From Coraliomargarita sp. (GTDB lineage: Bacteria; Verrucomicrobiota; Verrucomicrobiia; Opitutales; Coraliomargaritaceae): DNA of 64,000 nt. Below are positions 22,363 through 33,065 of this stretch, piece after piece. The stretch spans positions 224,001 through 288,000 of the forward strand of contig OZ244160.1 of NCBI GenBank assembly GCA_965216325.1. Direction: 5' to 3'. Under the pieces are notes generated by a model, which saw only the letters and a list, made by a program, of their open reading frames with translations, was not told the origin of the DNA and made no database searches. Every line of letters begins with the position of its first letter. Position 1 is the first letter of the stretch. The translations under genes and the position numbers were made by a program.

Positions 22363-22861
22363 CCACAAAAAACACGAAAAAGCACAAAAAACTATCAAAC
22401 TGAGGTTGTGCTAATCCTGGACGTATTTCTTGATGTATAGTTTGGGTGCGCCGAAATTGATAAGCAGACCATCGTGTATGCGGGCAGATTTCAGATAGCC
22501 AAGTATTTGAGCGACATGGTCCTCTGAGACTGAGCGAGTGGCTTTCAGCTCAACAATGATACGGCCTTCTACGAATAGGTCGGCGAAATACTCTCCGATA
22601 ACTGTTCCATCCTCATCGTAAACAGTCAGTGGGTGTTGCTGGATGACTTCTAGCCCTGCCTTTTGTAAGCGATGACACAGCGCGTTTTCATAGACTTTCT
22701 CCAGATGTCCATTGCGGTGATATTTGTGGATCGCGAAACTGGTTTCGCGGATGAGGTCGCAGAGTTCGTTGATTTGTTTCATGGAACTAACGTTACTAAT
22801 GGGGGTTCTTTATATTTCAAACGTCAGCAGAGTTTTTGTGCCTTTTGGTGTTTTTTGTGGC
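22362..22861. mobile_element. 500-bp cassette: GxxExxY gene within terminal inverted repeats
   Basis: GCCACAAAAAACACGAAAAAGCACAAAAA (from 22362) vs reverse complement of 22833-22861, 27/29 identical. Confidence 0.65.
22411..22782 (-). CDS. GxxExxY protein (PD-(D/E)XK nuclease-like)
   Basis: [39 protein letters not shown]. Confidence 0.93.
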
Positions 22862-22923: not shown

Positions 22924-23757
22924 ATGAACTGGGAAAAAGTCCGCGAATTCGAAGAGATTATTTATGAAAAGTGTGATGGCGTTGCCAAGGTCACGATCAA
23001 TCGTCCGCACCGTCGTAATGCGTTTACACCCGATACGGTGGGTGAGTTGATCGAAGCATTCACGGATGCACGTGAAGATTCCTCCATCGGTGTCGTTTTG
23101 CTGACAGGTTTTAATCCGCAGACAGATGGGAAGTTCGCGTTCTGTGCTGGAGGCGACCAAAAGATCCGCGGGCACAAGGCTGGCGGTTACATCGGCAAGG
23201 ATGGTGTGCCTCGTTTGAATGTCCTAGACCTTCAGAAATTGATCCGTTCGATGCCGAAGGTGGTGATCGCGCTGGTTGCAGGATACGCAATCGGTGGTGG
23301 TCATGTGCTCCATGTGGTCTGCGATATGACTATCGCCGCGGACAATGCGATCTTCGGTCAAACGGGCCCGAAGGTGGGGAGCTTCGATGGAGGCTTTGGC
23401 TCCAGCTACTTGGCACGTATTGTTGGCCAGAAGAAAGCGCGTGAGATTTGGTATCTCTGTCGCCAATACAATGCGCAGGAAGCGCTGGACATGGGCTTGG
23501 TCAATAAGGTGGTGCCCTATGAGCAACTTGAAGCCGAGGGCTACCAGTGGGCGCAGGAAATTCTGCAACACAGCCCGCTGTCGATTCGTTGCTTGAAGGC
23601 CGCCTTCAATGCAGATGTTGACGGTCAACAAGGCCTGCAGGAACTTGCCGGCAACGCGACCTTACTCTACTACCTCACTGAAGAGGGTGAGGAGGGCCGC
23701 CGTGCGTGGAACGAAAAGCGCGCTCCAGAGTTCAAGAAGTATCCTTGGTTGCCTTAG
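22924..23757 (+). CDS. menB: 1,4-dihydroxy-2-naphthoyl-CoA synthase
   Basis: [32 protein letters not shown]. Confidence 0.97.
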
Positions 23758-23824
23758 TCGTGCAACTTGTGGAGCCTTGCTTGTTCTTGACCACGTTCGC
23801 TCTAAATCATATGTCTGCATGCAT

Positions 23825-24574
23825 ATGAAGGGGGGTATATGTATACTGCTTGTTGCGCTCTGTGGCGCACTTTCAGCGGGAGAAACATGGACACTGACGA
23901 ATCAGAAGAATCAATCGATTGAGGTGGATTACATCTTCTATGATGGAGTTCAGCTTAGCTGTCGGAAGGTCGGAAGTGTCAATAAATTCAAGCTTTCGCC
24001 CAACGACCTCTCGAAAGAGTGCTGGAAGGAAATTCAGGCGAGTTTTGGCAACAGTGCTGTCATTGACCTGGAAGTGAGCCGTCGGACGAAAACGTCTTCA
24101 GATACGGACCGCACATCCTATTCGGGGTATTTCTCCACATACAGTCACGAGCGTAAGGATATTGAAAAGCTCAATTTGTTTACGATCGAGCTATCTTCTT
24201 CCTCACATTTTGCCTCAGAGGTGACGATTGAAACCTTCATCTTTGCAGATGGTGAGGTCGAGTATGGCCGTATTCCTGCGACAGTTTCGATGCGTGAATC
24301 CTTCGAAACTGTTGTGGAGAAGATGATGGAGAGTACTGAATACAGCTCAAAATCGTCTTACAGTGGAACTTATTACAAAAGCGAGTATGGCGACGATAAG
24401 GCTTATCTTGGAGTGATCGTGTTAAATGGTCGTGGTGAGGAGATTGCGGACTATGCTTCCTCTGGAAAAATTAAATCCAGAATGCACGCGATCAAGCACT
24501 CGGAGCGCCAGAGTTTTAAGCCGAAAGGTGGGGGCAAGGAAACGAACAAGAAGAAGTCCGTTGAAAGCCTCTGA
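23825..24574 (+). CDS. Exported hypothetical protein with SHD1-like N-terminal domain
   Basis: Signal peptide then TWTLTNQ..QSIE...LS pattern. Confidence 0.55.
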   Translation: MKGGICILLVALCGALSAGETWTLTNQKNQSIEVDYIFYDGVQLSCRKVGSVNKFKLSPNDLSKECWKEIQASFGNSAVIDLEVSRRTKTSSDTDRTSYSGYFSTYSHERKDIEKLNLFTIELSSSSHFASEVTIETFIFADGEVEYGRIPATVSMRESFETVVEKMMESTEYSSKSSYSGTYYKSEYGDDKAYLGVIVLNGRGEEIADYASSGKIKSRMHAIKHSERQSFKPKGGGKETNKKKSVESL

Positions 24575-24580
24575 GGCTCG

Positions 24581-26143
24581 CTATTTTCGGTTCTTTATAT
24601 AGTCCAGTGCCTGGCTGACTGGAAGTTCGTCGCTCGAAGGGCCGTTGCGAATAAAGAAACTTTCGCCCTTGGTGTGCTTGAGGAAGACTGGTTCGTCGGA
24701 GCGTTGACATTCGGCAATGCCGACCAGTTTGCCGTCGAGAGTGACCGTGCGGAACTCGATGTATTTGGAGAACTCAGCGCCGATCTGTGCCGCGATCAGA
24801 TTTTTGAAATGGAGTTGTGCGTGGTCTTCGCTTTCGAACTTGTCGGCTTCAAGGCCGAGTATCTCGCCATCGTCCGAGACGCCGAGCAGTAGGGTGCCGC
24901 CATCGGTGTTGAGAAATGCGGCCACGCCCTTGAGCCATGCGGTTTCGATTTCCTTGCCCGGCTTGTTGGTGTGGAGGTTGGTCCGCATGGTGGACTTAAA
25001 CTCGCGGCGTTTACTTTCGCCACGCTTAATCATGTCTTGGACGCTCTCGATGGCTTTTGCGGGGTCGAACGGGACCGTTGGGCCTCCGCGGTGGCCAATT
25101 TGGCGCCTAGCCAAAACAAAGCTGAATGCAGCAGCGACCACTACCGCGAGCATGCCGAAGCCCATCAGCATACTGCGTCGTTCGCTTACCCCTTGTATGG
25201 TGTCTTGCTCGGGAACCATGACGCCCACCCATACATTCTGTTCGGGGTTGAGAGGACGAAAACCACACCACCAGACCTTACCACCGTGTCGGACTGCGAT
25301 GATTTTTTTCTCCTCGGAGGTATTTCGCCATGCCGAGTGTGCCTTCTTCGCCAGCTCATTATCGCTCTCTTGCATCGAAGTAAAGGCAGCGCCGTTCTCG
25401 GGATGCGTAGTATACATAGCCTCGTCACGGCGCAGAATCATGATCTGGCTGTTGGGGCTAGGCTGCATGTCTTGGATGCTGGCGTAGAGGTTCTGTAGAG
25501 AAAGGTCGAAGGCGATTACCAGTTGGTAACCTTCGGGGTTCTCCAGTTGTATTGAGCTGGACGCGGTGAGGCCGACGATCTTGTGCGTGAAGAAAATGTA
25601 GGCATCGGTCCAATACACCTCATCGGTACTGAGTGCTGGGTAAAACCACGGGCGGCTTCGAGCGTCGTAGTGACTGACTTCTCTGGTTTCGTTGAGCAGT
25701 TCGTCGCCATTCCAGATTTTGGTGACAGCCTGACGCTCGCCGTTCTTGATTCGGGTGTAGGTTGTCGTGATCGGGCCGTCGGCATCCGTGATGTAGTAGC
25801 TGCGACCATCGGTATCGGCGATGGAGAGGCCAAAGTGCTGACTGTCCTGCTGGATCAGTGGGAAGAGCAGGTGGTTCATCGCTTCGGGATCGTCCAAGGT
25901 CAGTAGCTCGGATTGAGCCCACTGGCGCACGATACGCACGGCATTGCTGGTCGCAGTTCCGACGATCCGAAACTCATTTGTTGCGCGGTCGGTTGACTGC
26001 TCAATGTAGGTGCTGGAGACATCCCGTTGCGCCTTACTCGCAAAATAAAGCGCAGGACCTAAGCCGACAAGGGTAAGGACGGCCAGCCCGATTATAAAAT
26101 CGCGCAGGAAGGTCTTGAGCAGAGTAGATTGTTTACGGGTCAT
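24581..26143 (-). CDS. Membrane sensor: periplasmic dCache_1 plus cytoplasmic Schlafen/AlbA_2 domain
   Basis: TM - YDARSRPWF..WTDAY..FD - TM - GESKRREFKS..VAAFLNTDGGTLLLGVSDDG. Confidence 0.82.
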   Translation of the reverse strand: MTRKQSTLLKTFLRDFIIGLAVLTLVGLGPALYFASKAQRDVSSTYIEQSTDRATNEFRIVGTATSNAVRIVRQWAQSELLTLDDPEAMNHLLFPLIQQDSQHFGLSIADTDGRSYYITDADGPITTTYTRIKNGERQAVTKIWNGDELLNETREVSHYDARSRPWFYPALSTDEVYWTDAYIFFTHKIVGLTASSSIQLENPEGYQLVIAFDLSLQNLYASIQDMQPSPNSQIMILRRDEAMYTTHPENGAAFTSMQESDNELAKKAHSAWRNTSEEKKIIAVRHGGKVWWCGFRPLNPEQNVWVGVMVPEQDTIQGVSERRSMLMGFGMLAVVVAAAFSFVLARRQIGHRGGPTVPFDPAKAIESVQDMIKRGESKRREFKSTMRTNLHTNKPGKEIETAWLKGVAAFLNTDGGTLLLGVSDDGEILGLEADKFESEDHAQLHFKNLIAAQIGAEFSKYIEFRTVTLDGKLVGIAECQRSDEPVFLKHTKGESFFIRNGPSSDELPVSQALDYIKNRK

Positions 26144-26185: not shown

Positions 26186-27166
26186 TTACATAAAGTAGCG
26201 AACGTAGGCGCGGTTGCGCAAATCTTCGATCCAGCGCTCCTGAGTTTCACGGGCGATGTCGCCAACGAGAATGTCTTCAATGGTATCGCGCACCTCGCTG
26301 ATTGGCTGGATGCCTTCTTCACGCTTGTCCTCGCAGTAGAGGATGAAAACAGTGCCGTTGAGTTCGATTGGTTGGCTGTGTGCGCCTGGCTCTAGGTCGA
26401 ACGCGACATCGCTCAACTCCTTACGAATATCTTCGCGCTCCAGCCAGCCCCAATCACCACCGCGACGGCTCATTTCGTCCTGACTATACTTCCGGGCCAG
26501 ATCGCTGAAGTTTGTGCCTTCATCGAGTTCAGTCATGATCTTCTTCGCGGTTTGGCCGAGTAGGTCGAGACCTTCGTCCGCCATCGGGGTGAGGATGATC
26601 TGGCGCAGGTGCATGGACTCGTTCTGATAGAACTTGATCTTGTTACGCACGTAGAAGGCCTCGATGCGCTCAGGGCTCATTTCGGACTGCGACTTGCGGT
26701 TTTGCTGACGCATCACGTTAACCGTCACGCGCTTGCGAATCGATTCGCGGTATTCGCGTGGTGTCTGGCCCTGGGCTTTCAAATACTGGAGGAAACGCGC
26801 GCGGTCGCCGCCGAAGTCCCGCTGAAGTACGTCGTTATATTCCTGATCGATATAGGATTGTGGAATGAGCAGGCCCTTGTTTTCCGCTTCTTTCACAATG
26901 ATGATGCGGTCGATCATGTTCTGCAGTACTTCCTTGCTGAGCTCGTCGATGCGGCGGCGGAAGTCCTGTTCATTGCGAGATTCTACGCGGAGGCGTGGGA
27001 TGATTGGTTCCAGCTCGCGGCGCAGCTCTTCGACCGTAATGATCTGACCTTCGGCGATGGCGGCGATGCCGTTGCCGAGGCGAAGCATGTCGCGGGATTG
27101 TTGCGCGGAGGCAGAAAGTGTCAGGCCGAGAACGGCGAATAGGGCGATTAGGCGTGGAAAGGTCAT
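26186..27166 (-). CDS. surA: SurA-like parvulin peptidyl-prolyl isomerase
   Basis: Signal peptide, SurA N-domain, F..LARKYS.D...GGDWGW. Confidence 0.85.
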
Positions 27167-30100
27167 GTGCGCGCGTGGCGTTGTAAAAACTTTGAAATTT
27201 CGGCCAACCTTAGAAGGGGATTCTTGGCGGTCAAGCGGGGAAAGCGGCTGCCGCTTTTTAGGAATTCCTTCTTGGGGCTGGGATTCGCCAGTCTGCAGAT
27301 CAGTCGGTCGCCCTCGGTTTCGACGCGACGCACCCCCGCCAGCTCAGCCAACACGCGGACTTTGCTCACGGCCAGTAGATGTTCGCTCGCTTTGGGCAAT
27401 TTGCCAAAGCGGTCCTCGAGTTCGTCGCCGATGGCACTAATTGTGTCGACTTGCTCCGCGAGGGCGAGGCGGCGGTAGAGATCGATCCGTAGGCGCGGTT
27501 CGGCAATATAATCGACGGGCAGTGCGGCCTCGACCACTTTTGCCTGCCGGTTGCCGTATTCGGCTTCCTTGATGGCTGCGAAGCTGTGTGTGCCGGTCGT
27601 GCTGCGGCGGGCGCTGGCACCTTCGCCGCTGGCGATAAAGTCGAGCTTCACTTCGGCTCGAATGCGGTCCGCGCCGGGCTCGCCCTTGAGGCGGGCAACG
27701 CTCTGCGTGAGCAACTGACAGTAGAGCTCGAATCCAACACCTGCGATGTGACCGCTCTGTTGCGAGCCGAGTAGGTTGCCCGCGCCGCGGAGTTCCAAGT
27801 CGCGCATCGCGATACGGAATCCGGCCCCGAGCTGGTTGTGTTGCTTGAGTGCGTTGAGTCGCTTTTGAGCTTGATCAACCAGTGCCGCGTGACGGTGGAG
27901 TAGGAGATAGGCGTAGGCTTGGCGTTTAAAACGGCCCACGCGTCCACGAATTTGATAGAGCTGCGCGAGCCCAAAGCGGTCGGCCCCTTCAATGATCAGC
28001 GTATTGCAATTTGGGATATCGATGCCGGACTCGATGATCGTGGTGCAGACCAGCACGTCAAAATCACCGGCGACGAATTTGGTCATGATTTTCTCGAGCT
28101 GACCTTCTTCCATCTGCCCGTGCCCGACGGCTACCTTGAGGCGCGGGTGCATCTCGCGGATGGTGTTGGCGACACCCTCAATCGTGCTGACACGGTTGTG
28201 CAGGTAAAACACCTGACCGCCGCGATCGGTTTCGGCCTGAATCGCGCTTTTAATGAGGTCGAGGTCGTAGCTTTTGACCACGGTCTCGATCGGACGACGG
28301 TCCACGGGTGGTGTTTCAATCACGCTCATTGCCCGTGCGCCGGCCATCGCTAGATACAGTGTGCGCGGAATCGGCGTTGCGCTGAGGGTGAGAATGTCGA
28401 CGTCAGCGCGCAGGCGCTTGATCGCTTCCTTTTGTTTGACGCCAAAGCGTTGTTCCTCGTCCACGACTAGCAGGCCAAGGTTTTGAAAGTGCACGTCTTT
28501 GCTGAGCAGGCGATGGGTGCCGATTACGATGTCGATACGGCCTTCGGCGAGGTTGGCGATGATTTCCTTGTTTTGCTTCGTGCTGCGGAAGCGGCTTACC
28601 ATGTCGATAATGATGGGGAACTGCGCCATGCGCTCACGGAAGGTATTGAAGTGTTGCTGGCAGAGCACCGTGGTCGGCACCAGCACCGCGACCTGCTTGC
28701 CCGCAAGCACCGCCTTGAGCGCAGCGCGGATCGCGACCTCGGTCTTACCAAAGCCCACGTCCCCGCAGATCAAGCGATCCATTGGTAGTGGCTTTTCCAT
28801 GTCCTCCTTGGTGGCGTCGATGGCGTGTAGTTGATCGGGCGTCTCTTTGTAGGGGAAGGCATCCTCGAAGGACTTTTGCCAGAGGTGGTCGGGTGGGAAG
28901 GCATAGCCACCAGCGTTTTCACGCTGTGCGTGCAGGTTGAGCAACTCGGCGGCGTAGTCGAGGGTTGCGATTTCAGCAGCCCCGCGGGTCTTGTCCCACG
29001 CGGCTCCGCCAATCTTGCCGAGTTTGGGTAGGCTCTTAGTGAGGCCGACGTAGCGGGTAAGGAGGTGCGACTCGTGCAGGGGCACGTGAATCGTCATATC
29101 GTCGGCAAACTCGACCGAAATGACTTCCTTGGTGCCGCCTTGAATATCCAGCTTGGTCAGGCCACGGAATAGGCAGATGCCGTGTTGCAAGTGCACCAGT
29201 GGGTCCCCATCGGCCAGTTCGGTGAAGTCGAGCATCTGATCGACCTGTGAGATCGTTGGACGGGCGCGCTCCTTGCGAGTGTGCAACTTGCGGCGGCGGG
29301 TGCCGAAGTATTCGCTTTGGGTGATGAGGACGAAGCCGGAGGAGGTTGGGGTCCCGGCTTTAGCCGGCTTCGAGCTAGATATAAAACCGCCTAAAGGCGG
29401 GACCCCAACCTTATCCTGACGAAAGATAAACCCAGCGCCAATGTTGCCTTGCAGATACTGAGGCTTGAGCTTCGCGGTCAGCGGATTGTCAGCCAGCAGA
29501 TCTTTGATGCGCTCGGCTTCGCTTGCGTTTTGAGTGGCGAAGCAAAGCTGTAACTGGTCTTGCTTGGCCCAGTCGGCCAGCTGGCTTTCGAATTTTGAAC
29601 GGGTGCTTTGCTCCGATTCGAAGCGGTCGAAGCCGACCTGAGTCGCGTCCGTGTGCAGTCGGTAGTTTTCGGTGGCCTCGGTGGAGAGGCCAATGCGTTC
29701 GGCATCTTTAAAGAGCTCCGGCGCTGTATCCACTTCGCAAATACCGAAGTATTGGTCGTCTGCGGGTGCACGGTCGGCTATGACTTTATAGAAGCTGCGC
29801 TGGTTGTTTTTTTCGAAGCGTAGGGGGTGTTCCCGCACCAATAGGGCGGGGTCTTCGAGGAGCCATTGGATGGATTCAATGGGAAGGTAATCGATAAGGT
29901 TGCCTTCACTGGAGGAGGCCGTGCTTTCGTTGCCAATGGCTGCGGCGATACTGATCGATTGCACCGGATGGGTTGTGCGCTGCGAGGCTGGATCAAAGCT
30001 ACGGATGCTCTCGATCTCGTCGCCGAAGAAGTCGATGCGGTAGGGCTCGTTGGCGTCGTAGGGGTAGATATCGATCAATCCGCCGCGGGTCGCCAGTTGC

Positions 30101-30594
30101 CCCGGATGTTCGCAGAGTGCCTCCGCGTCGTAGTTGAGTTCGTCGGTGAGCCGACTGATTAGCTCGGTGAAGGGCAGTTCATCACCGACATTGAGTTTGA
30201 TTTGCTGGCTCTCGAACTGGCTGCGCTTGGGGCAGGCACCTAGGAGAGCTTCGGGTGTAGCGATGAGGACCTGCTTGCTAGAACTCGGTTGAAGTAGGGC
30301 GCTGAGCACAGCGAGGCGTTCGCAGATGCGGTCGGCACGGCGATTGACGTCGATGTCGGGCGGGGGTTCTTCGGGGAAGTGATGCACCGCCATCGTCTCG
30401 GCTTGTCCCAACCAGCTTGCAAAGGTTTCGGCCTCGGCTGCAGTGCTTTCAGCGCGGCGTGGGTTGGCGACCAAGGCCACTGTGAGCTCGACAGAACTCT
30501 CGCGGCAGAGGCTTGCGTAGAGTGCAGCGCGTGCTTCAAGGCAGACGCCGTGTAGCAACTGGGCCTTGCTTAACTCTGGAGGTGATTTGGGCAT
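27163..30594 (-). CDS. mfd: Transcription-repair coupling factor
   Basis: UvrB-like N-terminus, CarD-like domain, [36 protein letters not shown]. Confidence 0.97.
29343..29411. repeat. 69-bp REP-like palindrome inside the mfd coding sequence
   Basis: AGGTTGGGGTCCCGGCTTTAGCCGG-19 nt-CCGCCTAAAGGCGGGACCCCAACCT; related arm at 33070-33093. Confidence 0.85.
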
Positions 30595-30606
30595 AGCTAA
30601 GGTGAG

Positions 30607-30684
30607 ACCCCTTCCACCTGGCAAGCAGGTGACCTCCTCTTAGCAGGGGAGGGGCTCAAACTCCCCTCCTTGTTGAGGTGGGGT
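30607..30684. repeat. CCCCTCC/GGAGGGG-type hairpin repeats between rnc and mfd
   Basis: CCTCCTCTTAGCAGGGGAGGGG and CTCCCCTCCTTGTTGAGGTGGGG. Confidence 0.5.
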
Positions 30685-30706: not shown

Positions 30707-31381
30707 CTACAATTTTTCCAGCGCATCGGCGGCTGCCGCGATTTCAGCCGCCTTCTTGGAACTGCCGCTGCCTTGACCCAGCTGTTCGCCATTTAGATAG
30801 ACGGCTGCTTCGTAATGGCGGGCGTGGTCGGGGCCTTCGGCTTTGATCAATTGGTACTCAGGCTTTGCGCCATTGTGAGCGCTCTGGCTCCATTCTTGTA
30901 AGCGACTCTTGGGAGTGCCGTTTGCGAACTGCTTGCCTGCAGTGGTGATGTCGTTGCCAAAGATACGCAGCACGCTGGTCTTTGCGGCGGAGAGTCCACC
31001 ATCCAAATAGATTGCGCCGATCAGCGCCTCGATCGCGTCTTCCAGCATGCGGTCGCTCGGATCGGGGTGGTGTTTGCGTTGTGCGTCGCTCACTTCAAGG
31101 AGTTGAGCCAAGCCAAGTTCGCGCGCTTTGGGTGCCAGCGCACGGCCATTGACCAGACTGGCGCGCATCCGGTCGAGTGCGCCTTCTTCGAGTTCGGGGA
31201 ATGCGTCATAGAGTGCTTCGGCGATGATCAAGTCGAGCACCGCGTCGCCTAAAAATTCAAGTCGTTGATTGTCATGCACTCCGAGGCCAAGGCTCGGGTG
31301 CTTGAGGGCAAGCTCGAGCAGATCACGATTTTTAAATCGGTGATCAATTTGTGACATCAGCTGGTCGAAATTGGTCTGCAT
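30707..31381 (-). CDS. rnc: Ribonuclease III
   Basis: [26 protein letters not shown]-terminal dsRBD. Confidence 0.97.
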
Positions 31382-31511
31382 TGCTAAATTTTAATGAACT
31401 TGGCTTTACGGCTTGCGCCAGCAAGGGGATTTTATTGGCTGTTTATTAGTTCATTCACCTCCCGCAGGCAACCGTTGGGAGACGATTTTACCCGCTACGA
31501 ATACCTTTCCA

Positions 31512-33065
<1,554 letters not shown>

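Follow-up and report, generated by a model that had tools for sequence, protein, structure and literature searches.

A predicted membrane receptor that joins an amino-acid dCache sensor to a Schlafen/AlbA_2 output domain in Coraliomargarita

The DNA analysed here is a 64,000-nucleotide stretch of a Coraliomargarita sp. genome (hereafter the window; assembly GCA_965216325.1, contig OZ244160.1, positions 224,001 to 288,000), and its subject is a minus-strand gene that runs from an ATG at 26143 to a stop codon at 24581-24583. The gene encodes a predicted transmembrane receptor in which a periplasmic double-Cache (dCache) sensor is joined to a cytoplasmic Schlafen/AlbA_2 domain (Table 1). The genome consists of one 3.06-Mb contig, and this is its only AlbA_2 gene. 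Of the 7,997 candidates scored in a homolog search, 618 proteins reached E<=0.001. Conservation counts given out of 120 refer throughout to an alignment of the 120 best homologs, all of which carry PF04326 and match 93% or more of the query's length, with identities of 41-100%.

Table 1. Features of the receptor gene in window coordinates (aa, amino-acid residues; TM, transmembrane segment)
Feature	Position	Strand	Basis
Whole open reading frame (P0001): TM1, dCache sensor, TM2, linker, SLFN_AlbA_2	24581..26143	minus	open-reading-frame list and translation, 520 aa
TM1 (aa 14-36)	26036..26104	minus	hydrophobicity scan; within model helix 4-77
Periplasmic double-Cache (dCache_1-like) sensor, aa 37-318	25190..26035	minus	model, Foldseek, PF22673 at 26.5 bits
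N-terminal half of amino-acid motif, Y159-D-A-R-S-R164-P-W166 (carboxyl-binding part)	25646..25669	minus	motif match and alignment
Y182, counterpart of PctA Y144 (amino-group contact)	25598..25600	minus	motif match, invariant 120/120
D213, counterpart of PctA D173 (amino-group contact, essential for PctA binding)	25505..25507	minus	motif match, invariant 120/120
TM2 and juxtamembrane helix, aa 319-345	25109..25189	minus	hydrophobicity scan (TM2 about aa 326-344), model, conservation
Cytoplasmic linker, aa 346-372	25028..25108	minus	model and identity by region
SLFN_AlbA_2 (Schlafen) output domain, aa 373-520	24584..25027	minus	PF04326, fold comparison
Catalytic motif Ex4ExK: E376-S-K-R-R-E381-F-K383	24995..25018	minus	alignment
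D424 in GV(S/T)DDG segment	24872..24874	minus	alignment 119/120

Two TM helices flank the periplasmic sensor, and the basic residues 1-13 ahead of TM1 predict a cytoplasmic N-terminus. The first-pass annotation, which had been made from the sequence alone, had described this same layout of TM, periplasmic, TM and cytoplasmic parts, and both TM segments are recovered by a hydrophobicity scan and by an AlphaFold model. The full-length AlphaFold2 model, built from a 120-sequence alignment with a mean predicted local distance difference test (pLDDT) score of 88.1, runs through a helix (4-77), a distal PDC module (103-224), a proximal PDC module (233-311), a second helix (319-350), a low-confidence stretch (351-360) and a compact alpha/beta domain (361-518). 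The sensor is accordingly divided into a stalk helix, a distal module (about 101-225) and a proximal module (about 226-318), and TM2 is preceded by a conserved WWxGF...VPExD segment in which W291, W292, P311 and D314 are invariant.

The periplasmic domain appears, from its modelled fold and its sequence, to be a dCache domain with a complete and family-conserved amino-acid-binding motif. In PctA numbering, the published AA_motif consists of Y121, R126 and W128, which contact the ligand's carboxyl group, and Y144 and D173, which contact its amino group; its two halves lie 13-17 residues apart, and the final aspartate follows after a further 27-34 (PMC8915833). In the same report the R126A substitution made PctA bind 61-fold more weakly, D173A abolished binding, and all of the dCache_1AA domains tested bound amino acids (PMC8915833). 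The window protein has all five positions at both of the published spacings: YDARSRPW occupies residues 159-166, 15 residues separate W166 from Y182, and 30 separate Y182 from D213. W166, Y182 and D213 are each kept in 120/120 homologs and R164 in 119/120, and position 159 is tyrosine in 89 and phenylalanine in 28. The motif YxxxxRxW..Y..D had been the central claim of the first-pass annotation for this domain, and every residue and spacing that it quoted is present and retained across the 120 homologs, in a variant that the motif's authors accept.

Fold comparison leads to the same family of receptors. After two integrative chemoreceptor models at ranks 1 and 2, the best Foldseek matches in the PDB are amino-acid dCache ligand-binding domains, those of Mlp24, PscC, Mlp37, PctA, Tlp3, PctB and CtaA (E 1e-10 to 1e-8, target TM-score 0.6-0.75), and the matched Mlp24 structures carry glycine, asparagine, arginine, proline or serine. 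HMMER pairs the YDARSRPWF, DAY and AFD segments with the corresponding parts of PscC (6mni) and PctA (5ltx). NCBIfam matches the sensor region only weakly to GepA, a phosphodiesterase, and the 25 bits scored (cut-off 1200) are not informative. The dCache_1AA receptors (PctA/B/C, Mlp24, Mlp37, Tlp3, CtaA and PscC) thus share with the window protein the topology of TM, double PDC and TM, the fold, and the motif with its spacing, at 8-17% identity in the fold alignments. They differ in what lies on the other side of the membrane: the known receptors feed chemotaxis, kinase, cyclase, phosphodiesterase, Ser/Thr kinase or phosphatase outputs (PMC8915833), whereas the window protein feeds a Schlafen/AlbA_2 domain, and does so through a short non-HAMP linker.

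The assignment of that output domain is clear. SLFN_AlbA_2 (PF04326) matches residues 376-507 with 72.8 bits (cut-off 25.3, E 4.5e-20), and the match spans positions 1-117 of the 118 in the profile. The domain contains E376-SKRR-E381-F-K383-S and then AFLNTDGGTLLLGVSDDG (residues 409-426), and the Pfam scan found no ATPase or helix-turn-helix (HTH) family in the protein at E<=1. The output motifs written in the first-pass annotation as E..EFKS and AFLNT.GG.L.LGV.D.G, with no ATPase, are therefore all there in a C-terminus that scores above the SLFN_AlbA_2 cut-off, and the checks that it had proposed by hidden Markov model (HMM) and structure prediction bear out both halves of the protein, the dCache fold by Foldseek and the SLFN_AlbA_2 domain by Pfam and by fold. 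E376, E381, F382 and K383 are each invariant in 120/120 homologs, R387, K405, K447 and R499 are invariant basic residues, and in HMM alignments to SLFN12 and SLFN13 the conserved D424 lies opposite the acidic GV-D/E-D segment that mammalian SLFN C-lobes carry. This is also the most conserved region of the protein, with 67% identity to 110 remote members of the family as against 25-38% for all other regions.

When the cytoplasmic part was modelled alone from a 49-sequence alignment (pLDDT 87.9), Foldseek returned 30 chains at E<=0.001, and those listed are all AlbA_2, SAMD9 or Schlafen structures. The AlbA_2/Schlafen C-lobe fold was confirmed with VIA-align, which gave Z 14.0 to DIP2311, 12.8 to the DNA-binding and tRNase domain of SAMD9, and 9-10.7 to the C-lobes of SLFN5/11/12/13/14, and a sequence profile of the output domain also detects SLFN12, SLFN13 and SLFN5 (E about 1e-4). 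Identity of the window domain to the AlbA_2 domain of SAMD9/SAMD9L and to mammalian SLFN C-lobes is 17-24%. Those relatives are large cytosolic multi-domain immune proteins, and the SLFNs have two lobes per chain where the window protein holds one AlbA_2 lobe, with its catalytic motif intact. The active site of the SLFN11 C-lobe is Ex4ExK, and prokaryotic Schlafens retain it as Ex4(E/D)xK (PMC13056530). Among the latter, RorSlfn5, which has the same catalytic motif as the window protein, is described as a hexameric, Mn2+-dependent tRNase that is activated by a phage protein (PMC13056530). CbCash is reported to cut tRNA with an E17/D22/K24 centre, to which the catalytic motif of the window protein corresponds, once filaments induced by cyclic tetra-adenylate (cA4) align its catalytic interfaces (PMC13462974), and in SLFN-pAgo tetramerisation is reported to rebuild the two-lobe mammalian architecture from single AlbA_2 lobes (10.64898/2026.05.29.728809).

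A full-database phmmer search with residues 346-520 places this domain in a broader context. It gave 5,628 representatives at E<=0.001, of which 419 pass the stricter limit of E<=1e-30, and nearly all of these 419 have a C-terminal AlbA_2 domain behind a sensor of about 350 residues; most of the best 150 matches are 480-560 residues long, again with the domain at the C-terminus. AlbA_2 was found in all 36 of the shorter matches that were scanned. Most of these are N-terminally truncated fragments of the receptor architecture, the exceptions being proteins in which AlbA_2 is preceded by REC (P0266), by a TM segment and HAMP (P0177), or by six TM segments (P0242). This AlbA_2 clade behaves as a signalling output, recurring behind dCache in hundreds of proteins and also behind REC, HAMP and six-TM inputs.

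The REC-linked form is also found within the genus. In another Coraliomargarita genome (G001), a 306-residue response regulator composed of REC and SLFN_AlbA_2 (L009:1054-1971) is encoded beside a hybrid histidine kinase, immediately downstream of its REC-Hpt tail, and a second genome (G002, L008) has a comparable short AlbA_2 match. The AlbA_2 domain of the G001 protein is about 40% identical to that of the window protein, and both REC and AlbA_2 are present in 113 of its 120 best homologs, which the source databases name 'response regulator' or 'CheY-like'. When 49 Cache-linked and 100 REC-linked AlbA_2 domains are compared, 34 positions reach 90% conservation or more in each set, including E376, E381, K383, R387, E400, K405, D424, D434, D440, H445 and R499, and four of them (E376, E381, K383 and D424) stand at 100% in both sets. 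The sensor has a paralog of its own in G001, a 732-residue protein (L012:118-2316) in which a TM segment connects it to an adenylate/guanylate cyclase domain; this paralog is 34% identical to residues 8-252 of the window protein, with the motif tryptophan replaced by tyrosine (RTRPYF). Since AlbA_2 is found with REC and HAMP and the sensor with a cyclase, both halves of the receptor are standard, interchangeable signalling modules.

We favour the reading, to which we would give about an even chance, that the window protein acts as a one-component receptor across the membrane, its dCache domain binding an amino acid and thereby gating a Schlafen RNase, probably a tRNase. According to this model, an amino acid or a close derivative such as gamma-aminobutyric acid (GABA) would bind the membrane-distal PDC module, and the resulting conformational change would travel through the proximal module and then TM2 of a dimeric or oligomeric receptor to alter the pairing of the single-lobe AlbA_2 domains. 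Cleavage of a universally conserved RNA, most likely tRNA, would in this way be switched on or off, and the net effect would be to couple external amino-acid availability directly to translation capacity at the post-transcriptional level. In the sister family, a REC domain that dimerises on phosphorylation could drive the same AlbA_2 switch. Receptors of the dCache type act as dimers. The solved prokaryotic Schlafens are reported to need oligomerisation to form an active two-lobe nuclease (PMC13462974, PMC13056530, 10.64898/2026.05.29.728809). Because dCache receptors are dimeric and single-lobe Schlafens are activated by re-arrangement of an oligomer, ligand-dependent re-pairing of the AlbA_2 domains is the simplest mechanism. 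We favour tRNA as the substrate because all characterised relatives cut tRNA, and because the output domain is extremely conserved across phyla without a conserved neighbour, which points to a universal target.

The closest parallels in logic come from quite different settings. In eukaryotes, Ire1 and RNase L are receptors in which ligand- or stress-driven oligomerisation activates a cytoplasmic RNase domain, and Ire1 is itself a transmembrane protein. The receptor proposed here would work by the same logic, but the folds are unrelated (a kinase plus KEN domain in the eukaryotic proteins) and no homology is implied. CbCash is nearer in composition, being a small-molecule sensor fused to a single-lobe prokaryotic Schlafen with an E-x4-(E/D)-x-K centre, in which the ligand re-arranges the oligomer so that the catalytic interfaces align and tRNA is cut (PMC13462974). 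Its sensor, however, is the cytoplasmic, Rossmann-like Csx15, which reads cA4 from type III CRISPR systems in defence loci (PMC13462974), whereas the window protein is membrane-bound, with a periplasmic sensor, a predicted amino-acid ligand and a housekeeping gene context.

Several points weigh against the favoured reading, and we take them up here together with the alternatives to which they lend themselves. We infer its ligand, its substrate, its oligomeric state and the direction of regulation. For the sensor, the Pfam match of the window protein, MCP-like_PDC_1 (PF22673), falls just below threshold (26.5 bits against a cut-off of 27), so that the dCache assignment rests on fold, motif and homologs. 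The dCache_1 family itself (PF02743) has no match in the window protein at E<=1, and a precomputed match in 24 of the 120 best homologs; 11 members of the family passed the PF02743-based screen of PMC8915833. In 106 of the 120 homologs the residue after the motif tryptophan is phenylalanine instead of tyrosine, which is an accepted variant: the form shown by the window protein, Y....R.WF{n}Y{n}D, is given in Dataset S1 of PMC8915833 for the one entry of the Pontiella sulfatireligans genome. The transmission step is the weakest link of the model, because the linker from TM2 to AlbA_2 varies across the family (25% identity to remote members), contains much Gly and Pro and has low model confidence at 351-360, unlike the rigid helical couplers of most receptors.

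A first alternative is that the sensor recognises something other than an amino acid, or that the protein is a constitutive membrane-anchored RNase whose Cache domain serves only a structural or localising role. A motif predicts a ligand indirectly, and according to the abstracts of the studies concerned small changes to it let dCache_1 relatives bind amines, purines and other ligands; a flexible linker, in addition, argues against tight allosteric coupling. A decorative domain would nevertheless not be expected to hold a pocket in which five motif positions and their spacings are kept, three of the positions without exception in 120 homologs. The carboxyl-binding arginine and tryptophan, moreover, are retained, whereas the title and abstract of a preprint lead one to expect their alteration in amine sensors. 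We consider this alternative very unlikely.

A second alternative concerns the output. The AlbA_2 domain might bind nucleic acid without cutting it, which would make the protein a membrane-tethered regulator in the manner of ToxR or CadC and its REC-linked relatives ordinary DNA-binding response regulators. AlbA_2 domains can indeed bind DNA, as the SAMD9 domain crystallised with DNA illustrates, and that domain is one of the two closest solved folds. The window domain has many invariant basic residues (R387, K405, K447 and R499), and homologs are named 'putative DNA binding domain-containing protein' or 'RNA-binding domain-containing protein' in their sources. In most response regulators the output binds DNA, and the REC-AlbA_2 arrangement is common. 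Nor does the presence of Ex4ExK tell nucleases from binders, because the motif is kept in nearly all prokaryotic Schlafens (PMC13056530). Against a binding function, the same SAMD9 domain is also deposited as a tRNase (9o0d), the Pfam scan shows no HTH or other DNA-reading module in the window protein, and Ex4ExK together with D424 is conserved in the Cache-linked and the REC-linked sets alike. In addition, no target-like neighbour is conserved across lineages, and 67% identity of the output domain across phyla suits a universal substrate better than species-specific operators. We regard a pure binding function as unlikely.

The third alternative turns on where these genes are found. In a scan of one genome per species, at least 555 family loci were confirmed, and the best 80 of them carry the labels of eight phyla: Verrucomicrobiota, Kiritimatiellota, Thermodesulfobacteriota, Pseudomonadota (mostly Chromatiaceae and other Gammaproteobacteria), Planctomycetota, Calditrichota, Myxococcota and Bacteroidota. 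Among 60 relatives examined, full-length copies are present in 3/3 further genomes of the genus and in 0/33 further genomes of the family. In a quick maximum-likelihood tree built from 71 full-length members, Chromatiaceae, Desulfocapsa, Pontiella and Coraliomargarita each form coherent clades, but phyla are also mixed, with Thermodesulfobacteriota needing at least six changes that are forced by well-supported branches. Judged from this tree, inheritance has been vertical within families with some transfer between phyla. One member, on a contig labelled as a Yoonia sp. metagenome-assembled genome (L017), is 63% identical to the window protein and lies within the Coraliomargarita clade with 100% support in the Shimodaira-Hasegawa-like approximate likelihood ratio test; the contig has probably been mis-binned rather than the gene transferred.

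An accessory or defence gene could also be distributed in this patchy and partly horizontal way, and one can imagine an abortive-infection sensor in which a cue linked to infection or lysis (amino acids from lysed kin, for example, or envelope damage) unleashes the Schlafen tRNase and halts translation. The characterised prokaryotic Schlafens, RorSlfn5, CbCash and SLFN-pAgo, are all tRNases that act as defence effectors (PMC13056530, PMC13462974, 10.64898/2026.05.29.728809). In the recent survey of prokaryotic Schlafen (pSlfn) genes, 69.6% lie near defence genes, and 36% of the group pSlfn12, to which the domain composition of the window protein corresponds, lie within 10 kb of one (PMC13056530). 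The defence score of that group, 0.36, is however under the survey's cut-off, only groups with a score above 0.5 having been considered there, and its authors allow that the 30.4% lying apart from defence genes 'may have non-immune functions' (PMC13056530).

The gene context of the window protein argues against a defence role. The 21 proteins encoded within about 11 kb of the gene include no defence gene; the two PADLOC matches among them are generic helicase and P-loop matches to Mfd and PhoH, and no PADLOC model matches the window protein itself. Immediately upstream on the same strand, 42 nucleotides (nt) away, is a SurA/PpiC-like gene (26186..27166), which is preceded by mfd (27163..30624), and the remaining neighbours are ordinary: RNase III, a PhoH/PIN protein, MenD, a MenB-like enoyl-CoA hydratase, a PDDEXK_3 protein, a T2SS-F-like protein and a nitroreductase. 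The guanine-plus-cytosine content of the receptor gene (0.55, with 0.48-0.60 in the surroundings) bears no sign of recent transfer. Among the immediate neighbours at 74 loci, 112/135 have no PADLOC match and 23/135 have one; 21 of these 23 are the PLD-like and TatD-like genes that flank the receptor in Kiritimatiellales-type loci, whose matches (DrmC/MkoB and QatD) are lineage-specific and at the level of the generic domain fold. When 869 open reading frames from 80 loci and the window were clustered, no neighbour was common to more than 15 of the 81 loci. Synteny is stable only within lineages and is housekeeping-like, with NhaA and Mla-like genes in Desulfocapsa, a CCA enzyme in Chromatiaceae, and Mfd with the SurA-like gene in the window.

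Mobile elements tell the same story. No full-length member was found in 72,556 plasmids (0 places with at least 80% coverage) or in 50,697 phage records, and a search of 2.9 million viral contigs yielded no more than 4 matches, all distant and partial. The family is chromosomal, with lineage-specific housekeeping neighbours, and lies outside defence islands. The sensor, for its part, is an ordinary amino-acid dCache domain, and the sister form is wired to a phosphorelay. The possible defence class raised in the first-pass annotation thus draws no support from gene context or from the phage and plasmid collections, and we favour nutrient or environment signalling over phage defence, which we judge to be improbable.

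Two lineages nevertheless show neighbours that deserve mention in their own right. In Kiritimatiellales-type loci (L021, L023, L024, L028-L030, L033, L036, L037, L039, L040, L042) a PLD-like gene of about 600 codons (DrmC/MkoB at domain level) lies upstream and a TatD-like gene (56-89 bits to the QatD model) downstream on the same strand, with gaps of 0-75 nt, and the three genes may form a nuclease-rich operon that is confined to this one lineage. At 12 loci from Chromatiaceae and related Gammaproteobacteria (L043, L047, L050, L052, L057, L059, L061, L064, L069, L073, L079, L087), a gene that reads by sequence as a CCA-adding tRNA nucleotidyltransferase converges on the receptor gene from 0 to about 1,200 nt downstream. 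The arrangement could be lineage synteny only, yet an enzyme of tRNA 3'-end repair beside a putative tRNase is notable.

The architecture itself has been catalogued, without discussion in the literature searched. Dataset S2 of a 2022 PNAS paper lists 'AlbA_2,dCache_1' with 11 proteins (PMC8915833), of which 3 coincide with family loci that were retrieved independently here, those of Pontiella sulfatireligans (L039), Marichromatium gracile (L051) and Desulfobacteraceae UBA2771 (L031); the words 'AlbA' and 'Schlafen' were not found in the main text of that paper. Supplementary Table 2 of a 2026 Nature Microbiology paper includes the group pSlfn12 (Cache.pSlfn, Cache.Cache.pSlfn and Cache.Cache.Cache.pSlfn), with 25 members that make up 0.42% of the survey (PMC13056530), and Cache.Cache.pSlfn is the composition that the window protein shows. 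Its counterpart for the REC-linked relatives is the group pSlfn18 (CheY.pSlfn), which has 14 members and a defence score of 0.5 (PMC13056530). In the main text of PMC13056530 the words 'Cache', 'transmembrane', 'receiver' and 'response regulator' were not found, and the pSlfn fusions assayed there are Ig-like, HisKinase, DUF262 and unannotated ones from Enterobacterales, with pSlfn12 appearing in the supplementary table only. The published figure of 25 understates the family, because the Desulfosarcina widdelii member (L026, NZ_AP021875.1_3262) is filed there as 'pSlfn.unannotated_fusion_cluster228'. A full-text literature search, which left some supplements out of its reach, found nothing that combines 'AlbA_2' with 'dCache', and, judged by title and abstract, the papers that pair 'Schlafen' with 'Cache', or 'AlbA_2' with 'response regulator', have no bearing on the architecture. 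The first-pass annotation had proposed a one-component receptor coupling extracellular amino acids to RNA cleavage or binding, possibly of an undescribed signalling or defence class. The receptor with a nucleic-acid-directed output fits all of the findings and is strengthened by the REC and HAMP versions, whereas 'undescribed' was too strong in view of these two supplementary listings and the suggestion of defence is not favoured.

A tentative extension of the receptor model is that RNA cleavage, in place of phosphorylation, second-messenger turnover or DNA binding, is the output of a whole class of bacterial signal-transduction proteins, among them dCache-AlbA_2 receptors, HAMP-AlbA_2 proteins and REC-AlbA_2 response regulators. 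In the window protein an extracellular amino acid would then directly gate a membrane-bound Schlafen tRNase in an Ire1-like and non-immune manner, and translation would be tuned to the nutrients outside the cell. Prokaryotic Schlafens were shown to be tRNases only in 2025-2026, and the cases studied are all cytoplasmic anti-phage effectors (PMC13056530, PMC13462974, 10.64898/2026.05.29.728809). The family described here is a membrane-bound form of the sensor-fused prokaryotic Schlafens, with a predicted small-molecule sensor, and it stands in the two supplementary tables. It would extend the Schlafen effector to ordinary environmental signalling, in the format of a membrane receptor with a chemically defined input that is easy to test (amino acids), and the sister response regulators would put the same nuclease under two-component control. 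If this interpretation is correct, RNA cleavage would join the recognised outputs of bacterial signal transduction, prokaryotic Schlafens would gain a non-immune function, and a ligand-switchable Schlafen would become available for the study of Schlafen activation in general. Should the protein prove to be a binder or a lysis-cue defence sensor instead, its study would still define a function for more than 500 loci now annotated 'ATP-binding', 'DNA-binding' or 'RNA-binding'. The model is readily testable, since cheap compounds are predicted as ligands and the predicted activity lends itself to simple assays.

Some smaller observations concern the expression and the surroundings of the gene. 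Contigs of 154-296 nt from two transcriptomic runs of one sample cover parts of the receptor and SurA-like genes; similar short contigs came from one further run, whose RNA nature is only guessed, and a fourth run gave none. These contigs hint weakly that the receptor gene is transcribed, with DNA carry-over as another possible source. A scan of the 42-nt upstream gap for promoters and terminators found no promoter-like site, with counts no higher than the shuffled expectation, so that the scan is uninformative, and one weak terminator-like hairpin lies just past the receptor stop codon on the opposite strand, terminator counts again being no higher than expected from shuffling.

Several RNA-processing genes lie nearby, RNase III and a PIN+PhoH (YlaK-like) protein being encoded at 30707-33065, less than 7 kb from the receptor gene; this arrangement is seen only in the closest relatives and is probably coincidental. 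A 123-residue protein of the PDDEXK_3 family (PD-(D/E)XK nuclease superfamily) is encoded at 22411-22782 on the minus strand, between menD and the menB-like gene. It overlaps a long upstream extension of the menB-like reading frame, the true start of which is probably further downstream. Finally, a convergent reading frame of 321 codons (23609-24574, plus strand) ends 7 nt from the receptor stop codon and has no Pfam or PADLOC match. An internal methionine followed by a hydrophobic stretch suggests that it starts later and encodes a secreted protein or lipoprotein, and convergent reading frames occupy a like position in two other loci of the family (L015 and L016).

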